Positions 12,659 through 46,306 of a DNA stretch of 64,000 nt are shown in pieces. The stretch is from an uncultured Verrucomicrobiae bacterium. Lineage in GTDB: Bacteria; Verrucomicrobiota; Verrucomicrobiia; Chthoniobacterales; UBA10450. The notes below the pieces were generated by a model. It searched no databases, was not told the origin of the DNA, and saw only the letters and a program-made list of their open reading frames with translations. Each line of letters begins with the position of its first letter. Positions within the stretch are counted from its first letter, which is position 1. Position numbers and translations under genes: made by a program. The stretch spans positions 448,001 to 512,000 of the forward strand of contig CAWFGO010000003.1 of NCBI GenBank assembly GCA_963815455.1. Direction: 5' to 3'.

Positions 12659-14050
12659 TATCTAATTGCGCTCAACAATCGTTCACGCAAATCCTTAATC
12701 GCGACCCGGTCCTGTTTCATCGAGTCCCGATCGCGCAGCGTAACGGTGTCGCGCAAAGTGGCATCTCGTTCACCGAGCGTTTCGAAATCTACCGTCACAC
12801 AAAACGGCGTGCCGGCTTCATCCTGGCGACGATAACGGCGCCCGATCGCGCCGCTCTCATCATAAAAAACGTACATGTGCGGCCGGAGAAGATCGACAAT
12901 CTCTTTTGCTTTGGCCACCAACGGCTCCTTGTTTTTTAAGAGCGGAAAGACCGCGCACTTGATCGGCGCCAGGCGCGGATGGAATCGCAGAACAATGCGC
13001 GTCTCCATTTTGCCTTTTTCGTCGGGCGCTTCGTCTTCTGAATAGGCCTCACAAATCATCGCCAGCACCGGTCCGATCGACTCCGGCGCTCGGCTCGATT
13101 ACGTGCGGAATGAATTTCTGCTTCGTTTCCTCATCGAAATATTCCAGCGATTTGCCGCTGGCCTTCTGGTGTTGAGTCAAATCGTAGTCGGTGCGATAAG
13201 CGACGCCTTCGAGCTCCTGCCGGCCGAAAGGAAAATCGTATTCGATGTCGTAGGTGCCCTTGGAATAAAACGCGCGCTCGGCATCCGGCACAGTGAGCAC
13301 GTGCAATTTGTCGCGCGCGATTCCGATGTTCTCGTAAAACTTCAGACGCTCTTCTTTCCAGTATTCGAGCAGTTCCATCCCCTGCTCCGGTCGGCAAAAG
13401 TATTCCAGCTCCATCTGCTCGAACTCACGCGAGCGAAAAGTGAAATTACGCGGATTAATCTCATTCCGAAACGCTTTCCCGATCTGCGCGATGCCAAACG
13501 GCAATTTCTTGCGCGAAGTATCGAGCACGTTTTTGAACTGCACGAAAATCGCCTGCGCCGTCTCCGGCCGAAGATAAGTCACGCTCGATTCGTCCTCGGT
13601 CGCGCCTACGAACGTCTTGAACATCAAATTGAACGCGCGCGGTTCGGTTAAATCCTTGCCGCCGCAGGTCGGGCATTGCTTCTCGCCCTTCTTGTTTGTG
13701 ATCTGATCGGCACGCAATCGTGCCTTACAAGATCGACAATCGACCATCGGATCGCTGAACGTTTCTTCGTGGCCGCTCGCCTTCCAGACCGCCCGATTCA
13801 TCAGGATCGAGCCGTCCATGCCGACCACGTCGTCGCGCTCCTGCACCATGATGCGCCACCAGTAATTCTTTAGATTGCGCTTCAATTCGACCCCGAGCGG
13901 GCCGTAATCCCAGCAGCCATTCAAGCCGCCGTAAATCTCGCTCGATTGAAAAATGAACCCGCGCCGCTTGCACAAGCTGACGATCTTCTCCATGCTTGCC
14001 GCGCCGTAGCTCGGCGAAGGCGGGCGCTGGGCGTCGGGCTTGTCGTTCAT
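12658..14050 (-). CDS. glyQS: Glycine--tRNA ligase, alpha2 type (frameshift near 13070)
   Basis: [47 protein letters not shown], anticodon domain [15 protein letters not shown]. Confidence 0.95.
13995..14024 (+). repeat. CYTGYCNCGCCGTAGC..GCGRAGGCGG repeat family copy at the glyQS 5' end
   Basis: Related copies at 14688-14718, 25946-25976 and (reverse) 57133-57162. Confidence 0.7.
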
Positions 14051-16327: not shown

Positions 16328-17455
16328 TTATTCTACCGCGATCACGACTTTTCCCCTGGCGTGGCCTTGTTCCAAATACCGGATCGCGTCAGGGACTTCG
16401 CTCAGTTTGTAACGACGATCGATGACCGGGGTCACTTTCCCAGCCGCCATTAGATCTGCCAGTTGCTTCATGTCTTTCTGCGTCGGATCGGACATCATCA
16501 TGCTCATCTTCTGACTCACGAACGGGGACAACAGCATCGCTTTGAGAGGACGAGACAATGGCCCCAGTAATCCCTGGTCGGCGGTTCCGCCGCCACCGAT
16601 CATGATATATTCGCCGGTGGGAACCAGGGCGCGTCTCATGCTTAACAACGGTTGGTTCCCCACATTGTCGAGAATCACGTCATAACGCGGCCCACCCTTG
16701 GTGAAATCCTCCTTGGTGTAATCAATAACGTGATCGGCGCCGAGCGATCGGACCATGTCGAGGTTCCTCGTGCTACACACACCGGTCACCTCTGCACCGA
16801 ACGATTTCGCGATCTGCACCGCGAACGTGCCCACGCCCCCCGATGCGCCATTGATCAGAATTTTTCGTCCGGGCTGAGCTTTGGCCTTGTCGCGGAGCGC
16901 CTGCAATGCGGTCAACCCAGCGATCTGGACAACTCCCGCCTGCTCGAATGTGATGTTAGCCGGTTTCAGGACGACCCCTTTTTCGGAAACAGCGACATAC
17001 TCTGCGAAAGCGCCGGTCTTCCCGCCCCACACTTCATCGCCGGGCTTGAATTGCGTCACGTTCTTGCCGACCGCTTCTATCGTCCCGGCGAAGTCGACGC
17101 CGAGTCGTACGACTTTGGGTTTACGCAAGCCCACGCCCAGCCGCATGATGTAAGGCGTGCCGCGGATGAAATGCCAGTCATACGGATTGACCGAAGCCGC
17201 ATGAACTTTTACCAGGACCTGGTTATCATTAGGCACAGGCTTGGCGATATCCATCAGCTTGAGGACATCGGGTGGACCATACTCGCAGTAGACGATCGCC
17301 TTCATCGTGTCGCCCTCGGTCGCGGCGAGGTGATCACAGTCGTTGGTCGACCTCCAGTAGGCGATAACGAGGAAAACGACTCCCACGAATAGAACGAGTG
17401 AGATTGCCAGCGCAGTCCACTTCACAATGCCTTTCAAGATGCGTGTTATTTTCAT
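16328..17455 (-). CDS. NAD(P)-dependent MDR oxidoreductase with N-terminal TM anchor
   Basis: ASVNPYD, LINGASGGVG, ADHVIDY, GHARGKVVI. Confidence 0.85.
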   Translation of the reverse strand: MKITRILKGIVKWTALAISLVLFVGVVFLVIAYWRSTNDCDHLAATEGDTMKAIVYCEYGPPDVLKLMDIAKPVPNDNQVLVKVHAASVNPYDWHFIRGTPYIMRLGVGLRKPKVVRLGVDFAGTIEAVGKNVTQFKPGDEVWGGKTGAFAEYVAVSEKGVVLKPANITFEQAGVVQIAGLTALQALRDKAKAQPGRKILINGASGGVGTFAVQIAKSFGAEVTGVCSTRNLDMVRSLGADHVIDYTKEDFTKGGPRYDVILDNVGNQPLLSMRRALVPTGEYIMIGGGGTADQGLLGPLSRPLKAMLLSPFVSQKMSMMMSDPTQKDMKQLADLMAAGKVTPVIDRRYKLSEVPDAIRYLEQGHARGKVVIAVE

Positions 17456-18266: not shown

Positions 18267-19391
18267 CTATTCCACAGTAATTACGACTTTTCCGCGAGCA
18301 TGTCCTTGTTCCAAATATCGAATGGCGTCAGCCGTCTCACTCAATTTGTAGGTCCGGTCGATGACCGGTGTCACTTTTCCCGATTGCATGAGTTCGGCCA
18401 GGATCATCATGTCCTTTTTGTTGAATTGGGCAATGTAGGCGATGAACTTCTGGCTAACGAACCGTGAGCGCACGTACGCACTGAGCGCACCAGCCAGACG
18501 CATCCCCATGCCGTCGTGCCATCCCGCGCCGCCGAACCCGGCCATGACACAGATGCCATTTGGATTCAGAATCCGCCGGCGCTCCGAAAACGAATGGTTC
18601 CCGACAAGATCATAGATCAAATCGTAACGTTGATCCGATTTGGTGAAATCCTCTTTGGTGTAGTCAATCACGTGATCGGCGCCGATCGATCGGACAAGAT
18701 CGACATTTCGCGTGCTGCAGACGCCGGTCACGTCGGTCCCGAACGATTTCGCAATCTGGACCGCGAACGTGCCAACGCCGCCGGACGCGCCGTTGATCAG
18801 GACCTTTTGTCCGGCCTGAATTTTTCCCTTGTCCCGAAGACCTTGCAGCGCCGTGATTGCCGCCACGGGGATAGAAGCGGCTTGCTCAAACGTCATGTTC
18901 GCTGGTTTAAACACAACGGCTCGATCCGCCATGACACACACATACTCTGCCAATGCGCCATTTTTCCCGCCGAACACTTCGTCGCCGGGCTTGAACTGTC
19001 CCGCCGCGGCGGGATTCTTGCCAACTGCTTCCACCGTTCCGGCATAGTCGACACCCAGGCGGGTATCTTTTGGTTTTCGCAAGCCAGTCAACGGGCGGAG
19101 CAGAAGCGGGCCTCGGATGCCGAGGTCGAGTGGGTTTACTGAAACCGCATGCACTCGGACCAGAAGTTGGTCTTCATTCGGAACCGGTTTTTCGATTTGT
19201 TCAACCTTGAGAACATCAGGGCCCCCATATTCACAATGGATAATAGCTCTCATGGGATTGATCGGAGGCCCGGCGTTGCGAAAGCAATCGTTAGTCGATC
19301 TCCAGTAAGCAATGAACCCGACTAGGAACGCCAACATTAGTGCGAACAAAATCGCGCGGATACTCCACTTTACGATACGCCTTAGGGTCAT
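18267..19391 (-). CDS. NAD(P)-dependent MDR oxidoreductase paralog with N-terminal TM anchor
   Basis: Same motifs as 16328-17455, shared AYWRSTNDC. Confidence 0.85.
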   Translation of the reverse strand: MTLRRIVKWSIRAILFALMLAFLVGFIAYWRSTNDCFRNAGPPINPMRAIIHCEYGGPDVLKVEQIEKPVPNEDQLLVRVHAVSVNPLDLGIRGPLLLRPLTGLRKPKDTRLGVDYAGTVEAVGKNPAAAGQFKPGDEVFGGKNGALAEYVCVMADRAVVFKPANMTFEQAASIPVAAITALQGLRDKGKIQAGQKVLINGASGGVGTFAVQIAKSFGTDVTGVCSTRNVDLVRSIGADHVIDYTKEDFTKSDQRYDLIYDLVGNHSFSERRRILNPNGICVMAGFGGAGWHDGMGMRLAGALSAYVRSRFVSQKFIAYIAQFNKKDMMILAELMQSGKVTPVIDRTYKLSETADAIRYLEQGHARGKVVITVE

Positions 19392-23685: not shown

Positions 23686-23733
23686 CGAGAAGCTGATGTG
23701 ACGCGGCTCGGCTGGTGCGCTATGCTTCCTCGC

Positions 23734-24318
23734 ATGAAGTTGATCCGACTCGCCTTGGTTCTCTTTGTTTCCGGCGTTCTCGCAACGCAGACGGTGAGCG
23801 CGGCTGAGCCTGCCGCTCCGGAAGACACCGAGCTGGCGGTGGGAAAAAAAGCGCCGTTGTTTACTCTCAAGGATCAAGCGAACCGCGACGCCTCGCTTGA
23901 ATCGCTGCTCAAGAAGGGCCCGGTGGCGCTGGTCTTTTTTCGGTCGGCGGATTGGTGACCATTTTGCCAGAAGCAGTTGGTCCAACTGCAAGCCAGCTTG
24001 AAGGAACTGGAAGCGACCGGCGGCCAGGTCGTGGCCATTAGTTACGATTCCATGGATGTTCTCAGCCGGTTCGCCACGAAACATTCGATCACCTACCCTT
24101 TGCTCTCCGATGCCGGCAGCAAAACCATCGAGGCCTACGGAATTCTCAACCGGGAAGCACAGGGTCGTGCCAAAGGAATCCCTTACCCAGGCACGTTCGT
24201 CGTCGGAACCGACGGGGTCATTCGCGCGAAATTCTTTTTGGAAGGCTACAAGGAGCGTATCGATCCCGGGTCGATTCGCGAGGCGGTGCAGAAGGCGAAC
24301 GCGGAAAGTAGAAAGTAG
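23734..24318 (+). CDS. AhpC/TSA peroxiredoxin-like selenoprotein candidate (UGA at 23956-23958, WUPFC)
   Basis: Signal peptide, VGKKAPLFTL, FFRSADW-TGA-PFCQKQL in one frame, continuing into VVAISYDS, LLSD, PGTFVVG. Confidence 0.85.
23973..23989 (+). promoter_or_regulatory. SECIS-like hairpin
   Basis: GCAGTTG-GTC-CAACTGC begins 14 nt after the UGA, with GU in the apical loop. Confidence 0.6.
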
Positions 24319-26063: not shown

Positions 26064-27407
26064 TTGCGGAGGGCTGCAAGATCGATGGGTAGGAGAAATG
26101 TAACGGGAAAAATGCTTCGGATCGGGGGTTTCTTTTTTCTCTTTTTCTCGGTTTCGCGCGGATTCGGCGCAGAGGATACCCCGGATACAGTGGCGAAATA
26201 TCTGGCGGGATTGATGGTTCCGGCTGCTTCGGCCGACGCACCGCAACAGCTATCAGGTCCCGATCCCCAATCTGCCCAAGTTCGTCCGGCACTCCCCACC
26301 GCTACGTCGAGTCCTATTGCGATACGGGTTCGCAGGCCCGGATCACTAATTGCCGTTCGCCGATATCTACCCGCGCCAACCGATCGCGGGTCCGCAACCC
26401 CTCGACCTGCGTCTTCAACCAGCCGGTCAACCGCTCAACCCGCCAACAATCCGTGGCTGACGCACTCGACCGAGTTGGACCAAGCCTGGAAACGGACCGA
26501 ACAGCAGCAGCTCGCAAATATTGCGACCTGGGCGCCGCAAGTTTTGGACGGAGCTTATCAAGCGGACACCACGGTGTTCTATATGTTTAGCGGGCCGGAT
26601 TTTCTTTACGCGCACGCGTTTTTCCCGAATGCGCGCACCTACATCTTTTGCGGGAACGAACCCGTCGGCACGCCGCCCGACTTGGACAAGATTGCACCGC
26701 AAGCGCTGCCCTACGCGCTGGCCAACATCAGGAAATCGCTGGAGTCGGTGCTGAACTGGAGCTTCTTCATCACCAAAGAGATGAAGACCGATCTGACTCG
26801 CACCGATCTGAGCGGGACGGTTCCTCTTCTTTACGTCTTTCTTGCCCGGATGCGTTGCGCGATTGAATCGGTTACGCCGGTGACGATCGACCGCGAAGGA
26901 AATCTGAGCGAGGGAAATGCGAGCGAACAAACCCCCGGGATCCGGATTGTGTTTACGAACGGTTCGCCGTCGCCACAAACGCTCTATTACTTCTGCAGCG
27001 ATCTGTCGGATGACGGCGTGAAGTCGAACCCGGCGTTTCTACGTTTTTGTGAGAAACAAGGACGGGGAGTGAGTTTGCTTAAAGCCGCTTCCTATCTCAT
27101 GCACGAGCCGGGATTCTCGAAAGTGCGCGAGTTTCTGCTGGAGCACAGTAGTCTCATTCTGCAGGACGATTCCGGCATTCCGCTGCGGTTTCTGGCGGAA
27201 AAGGGATGGAACGTCCGCTATTGCGGTCAATACGTCGGTCCGATCGAGATCTTTAAGCAGCACTGGCAACCGGATCTGGCCGATAATTACGCGCGCCAGG
27301 TACCATCGCCGTTGTCGTTCGGGTTTGGCTATCAATGGCAACCGGATCGGTCCGATGTGATGATCGCCACGCCGCCGGGAATAAGGGAAGTGGCGAGCGG
27401 CGAGTGA
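26064..27407 (+). CDS. Conserved hypothetical exported protein (YMFSGPDF...QDDSGIP family); start probably near 26112
   Basis: Long ORF with signal peptide and P/S/T linker; clear paralog at 31185-32246. Confidence 0.75.
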   Translation: MRRAARSMGRRNVTGKMLRIGGFFFLFFSVSRGFGAEDTPDTVAKYLAGLMVPAASADAPQQLSGPDPQSAQVRPALPTATSSPIAIRVRRPGSLIAVRRYLPAPTDRGSATPRPASSTSRSTAQPANNPWLTHSTELDQAWKRTEQQQLANIATWAPQVLDGAYQADTTVFYMFSGPDFLYAHAFFPNARTYIFCGNEPVGTPPDLDKIAPQALPYALANIRKSLESVLNWSFFITKEMKTDLTRTDLSGTVPLLYVFLARMRCAIESVTPVTIDREGNLSEGNASEQTPGIRIVFTNGSPSPQTLYYFCSDLSDDGVKSNPAFLRFCEKQGRGVSLLKAASYLMHEPGFSKVREFLLEHSSLILQDDSGIPLRFLAEKGWNVRYCGQYVGPIEIFKQHWQPDLADNYARQVPSPLSFGFGYQWQPDRSDVMIATPPGIREVASGE

Positions 27408-28549: not shown

Positions 28550-31079
28550 TTATTCCGTTCGGAGCGCCACCATGGGATTGATGCGCGTGGCTCGTCGCGC
28601 GGGCAGCCAGGTGGCGAATAGCGTCGCTGCGGCGAGAACAGTCAGCGCGCCGGCGAAAGCCGGCGGATCGAACGCGCCGACTTCGAACAAAATGCCGCTA
28701 AGTATCTTTCCGGCCGCGGCGGAGAGAAGAAGACCGAGACCGATCCCGGAACAGAGCATTATGGTGCTCTCGCCCATGATTAATCGAAACACCATTCCGG
28801 GTTGGGCGCCGAGGGCCATGCGAATCCCGATCTCGCGGGTGCGTCGCGCAACCGAATAGGCTTTCACACCGTAAAGACCCACCGCGGCCAGAGCGAGCGC
28901 AAGCCCTCCAAAGATGGAGAACATGGCGGCGCCGGCACGAACCAGCCAGAGATCGAGATTCGAATCGAGAAACTGGGCAAATGTTTGCAGGGTGATGATC
29001 GGAATCGATGGATCGACATCGTGTACGGTGCGACGCAACAGATCGGCGGTGGCGGTTTCGTTTTCGGGAGCGAGCGAACGGAACCTGACGAAAAAATGAA
29101 ACGTCACTTTGGAATCCGCGCGCGAAGGGCAGATAAATGGCGCCGTCGGGCTCTTCGTTGGCGAAAAGATCGTGCCGCGTTACCGGCACAATGCCGACGA
29201 TCTCGATCGTCTCGTCCTGTTTTTCCTTTTCTCCGGCGTATTGAACGCGCTGCCCGAGCGCGTCACCATTTGGCCAAAGTTTTTTTGCCAGCTTTTCATC
29301 GATGATGGCCACCTTCGGTCCGGGGCTTGTCGCTTCCGCGTCGGTGAATGCGCGCCCGCGGAGCACAGGCAATCCAACGGTTGAAAAATAATCCGCGCCC
29401 ACGCTGTTCCAGGCCGATTTGAAAGCGAGACCTTCAGCCGCGGTTGCGGGCCGGGCATCCGGGCCGGGATTAACCCCGGCGCGCTGAACGTTCTTGTCCG
29501 ACGAAATGATTCCGAGCGGAACTGTCGCACTAATGCTCGCGTGTTCCACGCCCGGCAGCGCGGCCAGCCGCGCATTCAGAGTTTGATAAAGTTCCCGGGC
29601 GCGTTGGGGTTCGTAACCGGCCAGGCTGGCATCGACTTCGAGAAGAAAACTCGCGCCCGGTCTGAGCCCGGTGTCGATCGACGCCGCTTTGCCGGCGCCG
29701 CGAACGAACAAGGCGGCCGCGGTCAGCAAGGCGAGCGAAAATGCAATTTGGACGACGACGAGCGGGTTTCGCGGAAGAAATTTCCAGCGACGATGTACGG
29801 CATCTTCGCCGGCGTGTGCTTTCAGGTCGGTCACGACCGCGGTGCGAGAAATTTTCAAGGCTGGCCCGAGCGCGAACATGAGCGTGCCAAGTAGACAAAA
29901 CCCAAATGTCGCAGCCAATATTGCGGGATCGGCACCGGTCGACCACACCACATCGAGCGGCATCAGCCGGCGCATCGAGGCTACGAGCAAACTCGACGAC
30001 CAGAGTCCAAGAACGAGTCCGCCGGCGCCTCCCAGCAAAGCCAGGAGAAGACCTTCGCTGAGAAGCTGGCGAACAATGCGGCCTCGGCTGCCGCCCAGGG
30101 CGAGGCGGATTGCGATTTCCTTCCGGCGCGCCGCGCCGCGCGCGAGCAACATGTTGGCAAGATTGAGACAGGCCACGAGCAGGACAACCACCGCCATGCC
30201 GAGAAGGAGCGGTGCGATTGCTTGCATTCCTTTGTCGGTTGCCGGGCTGTTGCCCACGCTGTTACGCGGTACCGGGGTCGCCATGAACGTCTGGTCCTGT
30301 TGCTCCACCGGATAGGCTTTTTCCAAATTGGCGGCCAGCGTTTCGAGGGCAGGCTTCGCCGAGGCGGCGGTCATTCCCGGTTTCAACCGGCCGATGATAC
30401 GCAGCTGCGTTCCGCTGCGATCGTTCAGGGTAGTCTTTTCCCTTGTCCCAAAATCGTTAGCGACCAGATCGTAATCGCTCATCGGCAACCAGACTTCCGG
30501 GGACAGAATTTGCATCGTGCCGGCAAAACCTTTGGGCGCGATCCCGACGATGGTGAACTGCCGGCCGTTGATCGTTAATTGTGAGCCGAGCATCGCCGAA
30601 TCGAGGCCGTGCCTTTGCCAGTAACTGTAACTGACGATGGCGACCGGAGCGTTACGGCCGGGCGGCTCCTCTTCGGGAAGAAATGCTCGGCCCCGCGCGA
30701 GCGGAACACCGAGGACAGAGAAGTAATTTGAAGTGACGACTGCCGCGAACGCGCGACGGGTATCGCCTTTCTGGCCGAGACCGACCAACGCCAGATTGAA
30801 ACTCAGCGCGTCGGTCAGGACCGTGTTTTGTTCGCGGATATCGAGATAAGTCGGGTAAGAAAAACCGCGAAACTTCTTTGGGTCTTTCTTGTTCTGGGAA
30901 AAGAGCTGCACCATTTCGTGCGGCCGGGCGTAAGCCGGTGGAGCGAAAAAGAGTCTATTGACCAGGCTGAACACGGCGGTATTCGCACCGATTCCAAATG
31001 CGAGGACGAGCATGGCGGCGATGGTGAAGCCCGGCGCTTTCACGAGTTGCCGGAATGCGAATCGAAAATCCTGGATCAT
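28550..31079 (-). CDS. ADOP-type duplicated ABC permease (MacB/FtsX), frameshift near 29090
   Basis: QDFRFAFRQLVKAPGF, LGIGANTA-like motif, ACLNLANMLLAR, RTREIGIRMALGA, INPMVALRTE. Confidence 0.9.
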
Positions 31080-31184: not shown

Positions 31185-32246
31185 TCACCTGCGCCTTGCG
31201 ATCATGAGGAGTCCGCGCTCTGCTTGCCACCAGTAGCCGAAGGCGAAACCGAGCTCGGGCGGAGGATTTTTTCGGTAAATCTCGGCCAGTTCTTTTTGAT
31301 CGTATTTCCCGAACTTTTCGCCATGCGGAAAGAAGCGCCCGTAGAATTCGAGAGCCCAGCCTTTGCGAAAGGCCCGCAGCGGAATTCCGGAGTCGTCTTG
31401 GACAATGACGCTGCTGTGTTCGAGGAGAAAATTGCGGACCCCGGCGAATCCTTCGCCGTGCATGAGGTAGGAAGCAGCCTTCACCAGACTAAGCCCCGGT
31501 CCGCGCGCCGCGCACCATCGCAAAAAAGCGCTGTTGCCGCCCGAGAGGTTGGTTTTGAAGTAATACAAGGTCTGTGATCGACCACTACGGCTAAATGTGA
31601 TCTTGACGCCTTCGGCGGGACTCCGGACGTAGGTAGTATCAATCACGGTGCAACCGAGCCGGGCCAGGAATACGTACAGAATCGGAAGCGTTCCGCCGAG
31701 ATTGCTGCGCCCAAGGCTCGCTTTCATTTCCTCGGTCACAAAATAGTGGGTAATCAGCAAGGTGCTCATCGAGTTGCGCAAAGCCGCCAGATCGTTCCCC
31801 AACGTGGCCGGATTCATGCGAGAGAGGTCTGGCACCTGGCCGACCGGCTCCAGACCGGCAAGGATGTAAGTGTTTGCGTTTGGAAAAAAGGTGTAGGCGT
31901 ACAGAAAATCCGGACCGCTGAACATGTAGTACATGGTGTTCGAGCTGCGATAGGAGGCACCGGCATGCGCCTTCATCCAGGAAGCGATCGGTTCCAGTTG
32001 AAAGAACTCTTTTGTTTTCCACGCCTTGTCCAAAGCGGCGGCGTGGCCCTGCCAGGCGGCGTTCTGCGTGAGCGGCACGAGCGGCCCGGTCGTCACGGGC
32101 AGGCCGGCGAGCAGGTGCGCGGTCTCGTCGAGCGTGGGGCCGTTTTGACCGTAAACGGATGAGCAAACGACGGCCAAAGAGCAGGCCAGCGCAATCTGGC
32201 AACACTTACGTTGCATCAATTCCGCGAAGAAATTCCTTCGATTCAT
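31185..32246 (-). CDS. Conserved hypothetical exported protein, paralog of 26064-27407
   Basis: YMFSGPDFLYA, GLEPVG, GTLPILYVFLAR, KAASYLMH, QDDSGIP. Confidence 0.75.
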   Translation of the reverse strand: MNRRNFFAELMQRKCCQIALACSLAVVCSSVYGQNGPTLDETAHLLAGLPVTTGPLVPLTQNAAWQGHAAALDKAWKTKEFFQLEPIASWMKAHAGASYRSSNTMYYMFSGPDFLYAYTFFPNANTYILAGLEPVGQVPDLSRMNPATLGNDLAALRNSMSTLLITHYFVTEEMKASLGRSNLGGTLPILYVFLARLGCTVIDTTYVRSPAEGVKITFSRSGRSQTLYYFKTNLSGGNSAFLRWCAARGPGLSLVKAASYLMHGEGFAGVRNFLLEHSSVIVQDDSGIPLRAFRKGWALEFYGRFFPHGEKFGKYDQKELAEIYRKNPPPELGFAFGYWWQAERGLLMIARRR

Positions 32247-45493: not shown

Positions 45494-46306
45494 TCAGCGA
45501 ACCGGGGATGACTTCATCTCATCGAACGCCGCCAGAGCCTGCTCGGGACGCGCTCGCACCGCGATGCTTTCAGTCAGATTCACCCAGCGCACCGTTCCTG
45601 ATGAGTCGATGAGAAACTCCGCCGGACGGGCAATGTCGGAGCCTTTCGGTCCGGCCCCGGCGTGCAGCAAGTCATACCGCCGAGTCACTTCCGCTTTTTC
45701 GTCGGATAAGAAGCTAAAGGTGAAACCCATTTGCTTCGTATGCCGCCGATTGATTTCGGGCGAATCAACGCTGATTGCCACCACTCGGATCCCGCGCGAT
45801 TCGAAATCGGCAAGCTTTTGCTGAAAACCCCGCAACTCGGAGTTGCAGAAGGGTCACCAGAATCCGCGATAAAAAATCAGCACCACTGCGTTCGATCCGG
45901 AAACCAGATCGGCCAACGCCACGGGCTTGTCGTCTTTATCCGGCAGAGTGAAATCCGGTGCCTTTTGCCCGACCCGCGGTGCGCCGTTCGAGGACGGGAT
46001 TTGGCGCGCCGCGTAAAAGGAGCCGTAGGCAAAAAGGGCGAAGCTACACAGACTCAGTACGGCAAAGATCGATCCAAAAATCTTGCCGCGATAAATTTTC
46101 GGTTTTCCAAAAGCGCGAACCAGGCCGGTGATCAGCAAGAGTCCACCGGTCGCGAAAAGGAGCAGATTGGCCCAGGGAAAATCGCGCGTGACCGGGAAAA
46201 GAATAAAGAGCGGGAAACTAAAAAGGCCTGCCAGCACGAGCAGAAAACCAATCCAAACCGCCGAGTTCCAGTTTCGCTTCGTGCCCATGCTCATGCTCGT
46301 GATCAT
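45494..46306 (-). CDS. Membrane-anchored AhpC/TSA peroxiredoxin-like selenoprotein candidate (UGA at 45854-45856, WUPFC)
   Basis: 3 TM helices, VGQKAPDFTL, LIFYRGFW-TGA-PFCNSELRG in frame with VVAISVDS, FLSD, ARPAEFLID. Confidence 0.85.

Follow-up and report, generated by a model that had tools for sequence, protein, structure and literature searches.

An in-frame TGA in an AhpC/TSA gene

In the 64,000-nt stretch of an uncultured Verrucomicrobiae genome that was analysed here (the whole stretch is referred to as the window), a gene for an AhpC/TSA-type protein is interrupted by a TGA codon, which raises the question whether this codon is read as selenocysteine (Sec) and what the protein then does. 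A reading made earlier from the sequence alone (the sequence-only reading) held that two fragments in one frame are joined by a single TGA. Translation of positions 23734-24318 (plus strand) confirmed this: the two table-11 open reading frames (23698-23958 and 23977-24318) share one frame, and the read-through CDS of 194 codons has the TGA at 23956-23958 as its only internal stop. The codon is preceded by VFFRSADW and followed by PFC, so that the predicted Sec residue (U75) heads a U-P-F-C motif (W-U-P-F-C) in which Cys78 (23965-23967) is the second position. U75 and C78 are the only Cys/Sec residues of the protein, and a distant Cys pair of the PrxL type is absent. A profile search assigned residues 36-165 to AhpC/TSA (PF00578; 115.5 bits, E 1.8e-33, cut-off 26), and among NCBIfam models the read-through protein matched 20 families, none of which reached its own cut-off. 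The expectation that standard gene callers would split the gene was borne out by the databases, which store a truncated C-terminal half; many metagenome records keep these approximately 108 residues, with the active site missing, as 'peroxiredoxin', an annotation error that is corrected here.

A promoter-like element (GTGACG-17 nt-TATGCT, 23698-23726, plus strand) lies 7 nt upstream of the ATG. Its putative function would imply a leaderless mRNA, and its distance from the ATG supports 23734 as the start. The pattern, which was written after seeing these sequences, occurs in 13 of the 16 orthologs at a shuffle rate of 0.00125, and a stock sigma-70 scan reported no site on the plus strand. A search of a plasmid collection with the sequence returned nothing at E 1e-15.

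The genome assembly comprises 3.62 Mb in 7 contigs (90% complete) and contains selA, selB, selC and selD, the machinery for which the sequence-only reading had proposed to look. They form a selC-selD-selA-selB cluster (G000:C2:636324-640758, minus strand) in which each member scores above its curated cut-off, and the tRNA-Sec (C2:640661-640758, minus strand) passes the Rfam gathering score. SelD itself has an in-frame TGA (C-A-G-U-A-S-K); the strongest hairpin after this UGA sits further out (stem from +26) than that of the target. When the whole genome was scanned for TGA codons that have coding-like flanks, a redox motif and a hairpin, the target ranked first of 29 candidates and a paralog in the window ninth. 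Such scans missed SelD and a further candidate and thus do not give the full selenoproteome. The further candidate, at C2:128367 (minus strand), is an in-frame TGA in the context S-Q-G-U-V-C, just past a signal-peptide-like stretch and with a stable hairpin downstream. For Sec formate dehydrogenase, two PF00384 matches were found in the genome, neither with an internal stop. Within the family, a SelB above the cut-off was present in 105/161 genomes (a tally that includes the unpublished genome G173), and its distribution was patchy by genus, for example 19/20, 20/21, 5/20 and 5/20. Sec use is common and apparently labile in this family, whose placement in the Verrucomicrobiota agrees with the organism names of close SelA and Cys-form relatives.

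The paralog (window 45494-46294, minus strand, with a candidate start codon) is a second TGA-split PF00578 gene with the motif Y-R-G-F-W-U-P-F-C. Its TGA lies at 45854-45856 and a conserved hairpin at 45826-45844 (minus strand). The N-terminus is hydrophobic and probably membrane-spanning. Within the family the paralog greatly outnumbers the target, with approximately 45 internal-TGA matches; in the 21 loci that were looked at, the TGA was confirmed at this position. Taken together, target and paralog gave matches with an internal TGA in 60 family genomes (position checked only for fetched loci); SelB is present in 57 of these and SelA in the remaining three.

Several other features of the window were recorded. 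An early-ending ORF at 13049-14050 (minus strand), which we take to be glycyl-tRNA-synthetase-like, appears frameshifted, as does a gene spread across two frames at 28550-31079 (minus strand), presumably ABC-permease-like. Two similar oxidoreductase-like genes, which we assume to be NAD(P)-dependent alcohol-dehydrogenase-like, lie close to each other at 16328-17455 and 18267-19391 (minus strand), and a pair of similar proteins that are predicted to be exported is encoded at 26064-27407 and 31185-32246.

Homologs were found to alternate between Cys and TGA at the position of U75, as the sequence-only reading had suggested should be checked. Among the top 120 database proteins, CxxC is found in 95, with Cys aligned to U75, and WxxC in 12; the remaining 13 begin after the TGA and represent C-terminal halves. 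A full-length close ortholog was present in 17 of the 161 family genomes, with TGA at the U75 codon in 16 (including the unpublished genome G293) and TGT in one. All 16 TGA-ortholog genomes have SelB; in the genome with the Cys ortholog (G301, 85% complete), SelA, SelB and SelD were not found. The TGA is shared by these 16 family genomes and 75 further homologous loci, with frames intact on both sides, and Cys forms are widespread (at least 542 confirmed stretches). One genome of another family (G120, 94% complete, 700 contigs), in which SelA and SelD were not found, carries a TGA form with a long C-terminus and the hairpin. This gene lies at a contig edge, and on a quick tree the encoded protein falls within a group of Acidobacteriota-type long forms; misbinning or transfer is possible. 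The invariance of R70, S71, A72, W74 and C78 among the homologs was rejected as evidence, as these residues were built into the search patterns. Second, partial C-terminal copies of the target were seen at G315:C61:150636-150938 and G202:C31:27710-27955, 3-10 kb from the full copy.

The hairpin downstream of the TGA

The 7-bp hairpin with GU in its loop that had been noted 14 nt downstream of the TGA was recovered at 23973-23989 (plus strand) and is identified as a bacterial SECIS hairpin by conservation and covariation. Its GUC loop occupies 23980-23982, which leaves a gap of 21 nt between UGA and loop (loop from +22). The bacterial SECIS model as given in the legend of Figure 2A of PMC13188914 has a loop of 3-9 nt, a stem of 4-16 bp, a distance of 16-37 nt from the UGA and a G within the first two loop positions. 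A check of the bSECIS type, proposed in the sequence-only reading, showed that the hairpin geometry fits this model (loop 3, stem 7, G first, 21 nt). The folding energy was -8.9 kcal/mol with flanks and -7.4 kcal/mol for the bare stem-loop, borderline values for the bSECIS criterion of -7.5 kcal/mol or lower. This energy does not exceed chance (z -1.18; equally good folds in 23 of 200 shuffles), and an equally stable hairpin follows 366 of 7213 ordinary Cys codons (5.1%) in long ORFs of the same genome. Folding energy was therefore rejected as SECIS evidence, and the hairpin stands out from chance because it is conserved and covaries. A rival fold that uses the UGA itself wins in 40- and 60-nt windows that contain this codon, where the pair probability of the stem is 0.11-0.38; this probability was 0.90-0.93 in an 80-nt window including the UGA and 0.89-1.0 in windows beginning after it.

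For the comparison of TGA and Cys forms, the TGA set comprised 16 family loci, the G120 locus and 80 of at least 120 metagenome matches, and the Cys set comprised the G301 locus and the best 80 of at least 542 confirmed stretches. The search patterns end at Cys78 and leave the hairpin untouched. Loci were removed if the motif was absent (three), if they were too short (one) or non-homologous (two), or if a stop interrupted a Cys locus internally (one), and identical 45-mers were collapsed, giving 89 distinct TGA forms and 77 Cys forms. Among the matches listed, GU was present at +22/+23 in 89/89 TGA forms versus 16/77 Cys forms, Val (GTN, the loop) was encoded at U+8 in the same proportions (89/89 and 16/77), and the inner five base pairs together with the GU loop were found in 87/89 versus 1/77. 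The stem of all 16 family TGA orthologs is identical to that of the target. One Cys form (L078) carries the full hairpin, identical to that of the target, and is possibly a recent Sec-to-Cys change.

Two stem pairs, +18/+28 and +19/+27, join sites that are synonymous for the encoded Gln or Leu. In the TGA forms among the matches listed, +18/+28 is GC in 77, AT in 10, AC in one and GT in one, and +19/+27 is CG in 65 and TA in 24, with no mismatches. Where the encoded peptide is Q-L-x-[QE]-L, both pairs are Watson-Crick in 86/88 TGA versus 9/20 Cys forms. Since the contrast persists within the same peptide, a palindromic tendency of its codons does not explain it. Kin are not independent, and tree-aware tests, which rest on few cases, agree in direction: the two sites of +18/+28 changed jointly in 6 of 8 independent pairs, with no opposite change in any of them (p 0.03), those of +19/+27 did so in 4/4 independent pairs (p 0.125), and the Sec state tracked the hairpin in 5/5 pairs (p 0.06). 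One quick tree and FastTree trees were used, from which 12 short or non-homologous rows were excluded. The quick tree contains 8 Sec/Cys switches, at least 5 of them forced by strong branches; as it is unrooted, these switches are counted without direction. The hairpin is under selection. The loci form a natural SECIS data set, in which a 17-nt hairpin shows compensatory synonymous changes and, on the tree, appears or disappears together with Sec on no fewer than 5 occasions, and this makes SelB recognition beyond E. coli testable.

These data bear on two explanations in which the TGA does not encode Sec. It could be a true stop, in a pseudogene or through a sequencing error, with the hairpin a by-product of the QLVQLQ codons. 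Frameshifts elsewhere in the assembly, the unremarkable energy of the hairpin, its identical copy in the Cys form L078 and the TGA of G120, with neither SelA nor SelD detected, would fit such a stop. Intact frames on both sides of the TGA in 16 family genomes and 75 further loci, covariation at synonymous sites and the Val codon at U+8, fixed in all 89 TGA forms and present in 16 of 77 Cys forms among the matches listed, argue against it, and we consider a true stop very improbable. Reading of the TGA as Trp (genetic code 4) or as another residue, which would give a WxxC protein, has in its favour that W occupies this site in 12 of the 120 top database homologs. All 12, however, are JGI calls with the QLVQLQ signature of the Sec clade and, to judge from that signature, are probably mistranslated TGA codons resulting from the code chosen by the gene caller. 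Of the 1007 ORFs with 400 codons or more, 424 end in TGA, which is the commonest stop among long ORFs of the genome; this normal use as a stop excludes genetic code 4, and with a tRNA-Sec above the Rfam gathering score it leaves decoding as Trp or another residue scarcely credible.

Fold, predicted export and proposed reduction of the protein

The sequence-only reading had described the protein as Prx-like, which was upheld for the fold and is less apt for the chemistry. An AlphaFold2 model with Cys replacing Sec at position 75 (pLDDT 89, pTM 0.81) matched AhpE best (Z 24.9, rmsd 1.5, 152 aligned residues, 36% identity), with BcpB at Z 23.8. Peroxiredoxins made up the 11 best fold matches, which means that true peroxidases are the closest solved structures; ResA (Z 17.6, rmsd 2.1, 137 aligned) and then other TlpA-type proteins follow with lower scores. 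By sequence, too, the best matches are BCP and AhpE. The peroxidase signature is PxxxTxxC together with an Arg (PMC3322552). The PxxxT/SxxC(U) active site of true peroxiredoxins was not found in the corresponding sequence, F-R-S-A-D-W-U-P-F-C: the peroxiredoxin Pro aligns with R70, the Thr/Ser with U75 and the Arg (that of 2cx3 and 4x1u) with P152, and the peroxidatic Cys of BCP/AhpE corresponds to Cys78. In 162 family rows the column of the peroxiredoxin Arg holds P in 154, H in 7 and A in one, and the column preceding it holds R in 18. Pro152 (Y-P-G, 24187-24189), where peroxiredoxins have their catalytic Arg, is predicted to be a thioredoxin-type cis-Pro. With other residues in place of the peroxidase Pro, Thr and Arg, a thioredoxin-type disulfide reductase is most likely. 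Sec as the first residue of UxxC, at the attacking position, has been described for a 'Prx-like' family (PMC1088965).

Residues 1-23 (23734-23802) are a predicted Sec-pathway signal peptide. The N-terminus is rich in K/R and then hydrophobic (best 11-residue mean hydropathy 2.84), followed by V-S-A/A-E, near which the putative cleavage site lies, and is kept in orthologs. A hydrophobic N-terminal stretch (mean of at least 2) was detected in 65/91 TGA-form and 66/80 Cys-form loci among the matches listed, counts in which loci with unknown starts and cut loci are scored as misses. The composition of this region suggests that the protein is probably exported via the Sec pathway.

Many homologs are longer than the target. 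Among the matches listed, 49/89 TGA and 28/77 Cys homologs run on for 200 or more residues beyond the active site, 22 TGA and 49 Cys homologs are short forms and 18 TGA loci are cut. The C-terminal extension matches DsbD_N (PF11412) in 9/9 sequences tested, 8 of them at or above the cut-off, and its Cys pair is kept in 67/67 complete long forms. The protein of the window is a short form without a DsbD_N domain or a dsbD neighbour. The only dsbD/scsB-like gene of its genome (L278, G000:C1:780445-783855) is broken by three frameshifts. In 13 of 15 other TGA-ortholog genomes, DsbD_N and DsbD_TM are found in one frame of 713-814 aa, and because the gene is open in most relatives tested, the breaks here may be assembly errors. 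It is open in the Cys-form genome as well, and the co-occurrence is therefore not specific. Directly after dsbD/scsB on C1 lies a separate AhpC/TSA gene, which we read as the PrxL of this genome; its product has a single Cys in a CPF motif and another Cys at the C-terminus. In Caulobacter, ScsB keeps the exported proteins TlpA, PprX and PrxL reduced (PMC3322552).

Beside the TGA forms no conserved neighbour was found within flanks of 1.2-1.5 kb. Among 81 Cys-form loci, 12 adjoin a MNIO bufferin-type maturase, 9 arsS and 7 an arsM-type methyltransferase. Acidobacteriota Cys long forms (AhpC/TSA plus DsbD_N; L128, L138, L145, L147, L149, L150 and others) adjoin a cluster of MNIO bufferin maturase (NF050167, above cut-off), DUF2063 and DoxX, and Opitutaceae Cys short forms (L082-L113) cluster with arsS (TIGR04167, above cut-off), an arsM-type methyltransferase, DUF547, VTT and DUF5069 genes and a FAD oxidoreductase. 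The neighbours of the Cys forms hint at a link between the substrate and copper or arsenic stress.

In the reading that we favour, with a probability of roughly 0.6, the gene encodes a Sec-decoded, exported Prx-fold disulfide reductase of the thioredoxin type that would act in the periplasm and be recharged by the membrane electron transporter DsbD/ScsB. Its four steps are not independent of each other. SelB with Sec-tRNA would, almost certainly, recognise the GU-loop hairpin and place Sec at position U75, as follows from the machinery, the codon and the conserved hairpin. The predicted signal peptide would very probably send the protein through the Sec translocon. A disulfide of the substrate would then come under attack from the selenolate of U75, with Cys78 resolving the intermediate to an Se-S bond, chemistry that the UxxC motif, Pro152 and the loss of the peroxidase residues make probable. 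With slightly less confidence, a DsbD-alpha domain is expected to reduce the Se-S bond, in trans by the dsbD/scsB product here and in cis in the fused relatives; the DsbD_N fusion in 49/89 TGA homologs among the matches listed points to this recharging.

Two other functions were weighed against this disulfide reductase. An atypical exported selenium-dependent peroxidase would have U75 attack H2O2 or organic peroxides without the peroxiredoxin Pro, Thr and Arg, with R70 perhaps stabilising U75, Cys78 resolving and DsbD/ScsB still acting as reductant. Selenolates react fast with peroxides, and the 11 best fold matches as well as the best sequence matches (BCP, AhpE) are peroxiredoxins. A periplasmic peroxiredoxin that is fed by ScsB exists in PprX, yet Caulobacter PrxL, which also lacks the conserved peroxiredoxin residues, had no peroxidase activity (PMC3322552). 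The residues that define peroxiredoxins (PxxxT/S and Arg) are replaced in the target, and the widespread Cys forms (at least 542) would require this triad to be peroxidases, making a peroxidase unlikely. More doubtful still is a role in periplasmic metal or metalloid handling, in which the Se/S pair, instead of acting on general protein disulfides, would serve to bind Cu or As species, to reduce them or to maintain a metal-binding peptide in its reduced state. Cys-form loci beside the MNIO maturase, arsS and arsM-type genes fit such a role, and Scs systems have been linked to copper (PMC10907172), but these neighbours are not recurrent beside TGA forms in flanks of 1.2-1.5 kb and the Cys loci within each cluster are close kin.

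Apart from SelD, three Sec candidates were seen in the genome: the probably exported target, the probably membrane-anchored UxxC paralog and the S-Q-G-U-V-C candidate. We tentatively propose, as a possibility that is less probable than its opposite, that this Verrucomicrobiota family keeps Sec mainly for envelope chemistry and that the R-S-A-D-W-U subfamily is an uncatalogued periplasmic selenium electron relay. If so, the fused Sec-thioredoxin and DsbD-alpha would take electrons directly from the membrane transporter and feed metal-stress targets.

Comparison with known systems

The gene is very likely a well-supported selenoprotein gene of a known class, and no new mechanism is proposed: UGA recoding, UxxC proteins of PF00578 and exported bacterial selenoproteins are all known. 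BtuF, SaoB and ExtKL are exported types. All three are among the selenoproteins of a 2026 catalogue (PMC13188914). Table 1 of this catalogue includes a Prx-like thiol:disulfide oxidoreductase (PF00578, UxxC/UxxU) predicted with high confidence; the PF00578 UxxC class has been predicted since 2005, with 22 sequences in PMC1088965. The target shares with it the Pfam domain, Sec as the first residue of UxxC, widespread Cys homologs and the status of a prediction. It differs in its predicted signal peptide and in the frequent DsbD_N fusion of its subfamily, neither of which is in the table rows; the subfamily is set apart from the catalogue class by this table description, with WP_010940744.1 as the catalogue representative. 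The only DsbD item of Table 1 is TsoB, and the table has no entry combining PF00578 and PF11412 (PMC13188914). A literature search, mostly of the main text of non-subscription papers, returned nothing on the R-S-A-D-W-U subfamily or its DsbD_N fusion and no paper on selenoproteins of this Verrucomicrobiota family. The features of the subfamily that deserve attention are the export signal, the DsbD-alpha fusion and the covarying SECIS.

BCP/PrxQ, AhpE, the Sec-containing peroxiredoxins (TxxU; NF040737, PrxU) and PprX share the fold with the target, whose Cys78 is at their peroxidatic position. The target differs from them in having Arg for Pro, Sec for Thr/Ser and Pro for Arg, and unlike in the TxxU proteins its Sec is at the Thr position and not at the peroxidatic one. 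The SelL-related redox protein (NF040769) also has a PF00578-like domain, to which the match of the target is weak (49 bits, cut-off 120). With TlpA, ResA and CcmG the protein has in common a predicted N-terminal export or anchor signal, a CxxC-type motif and a Pro at the predicted cis-Pro position, and these proteins are fed by DsbD-type proteins, as proposed for the target. It differs in a lower fold score (Z 17.6 for ResA), in reaching 52.9 bits against the NCBIfam cut-off of 170 for ResA, and in being, as predicted, soluble rather than anchored. Caulobacter PrxL (cd02969) is exported, as is predicted for the target, and like it is Prx-like and without the conserved peroxiredoxin residues; PrxL had no detectable peroxidase activity, and unlike the target it has two distant Cys residues and no Sec (PMC3322552). 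By analogy, PrxL as a substrate of ScsB may serve as a working model for the ScsB-dependent reduction of the protein described here.
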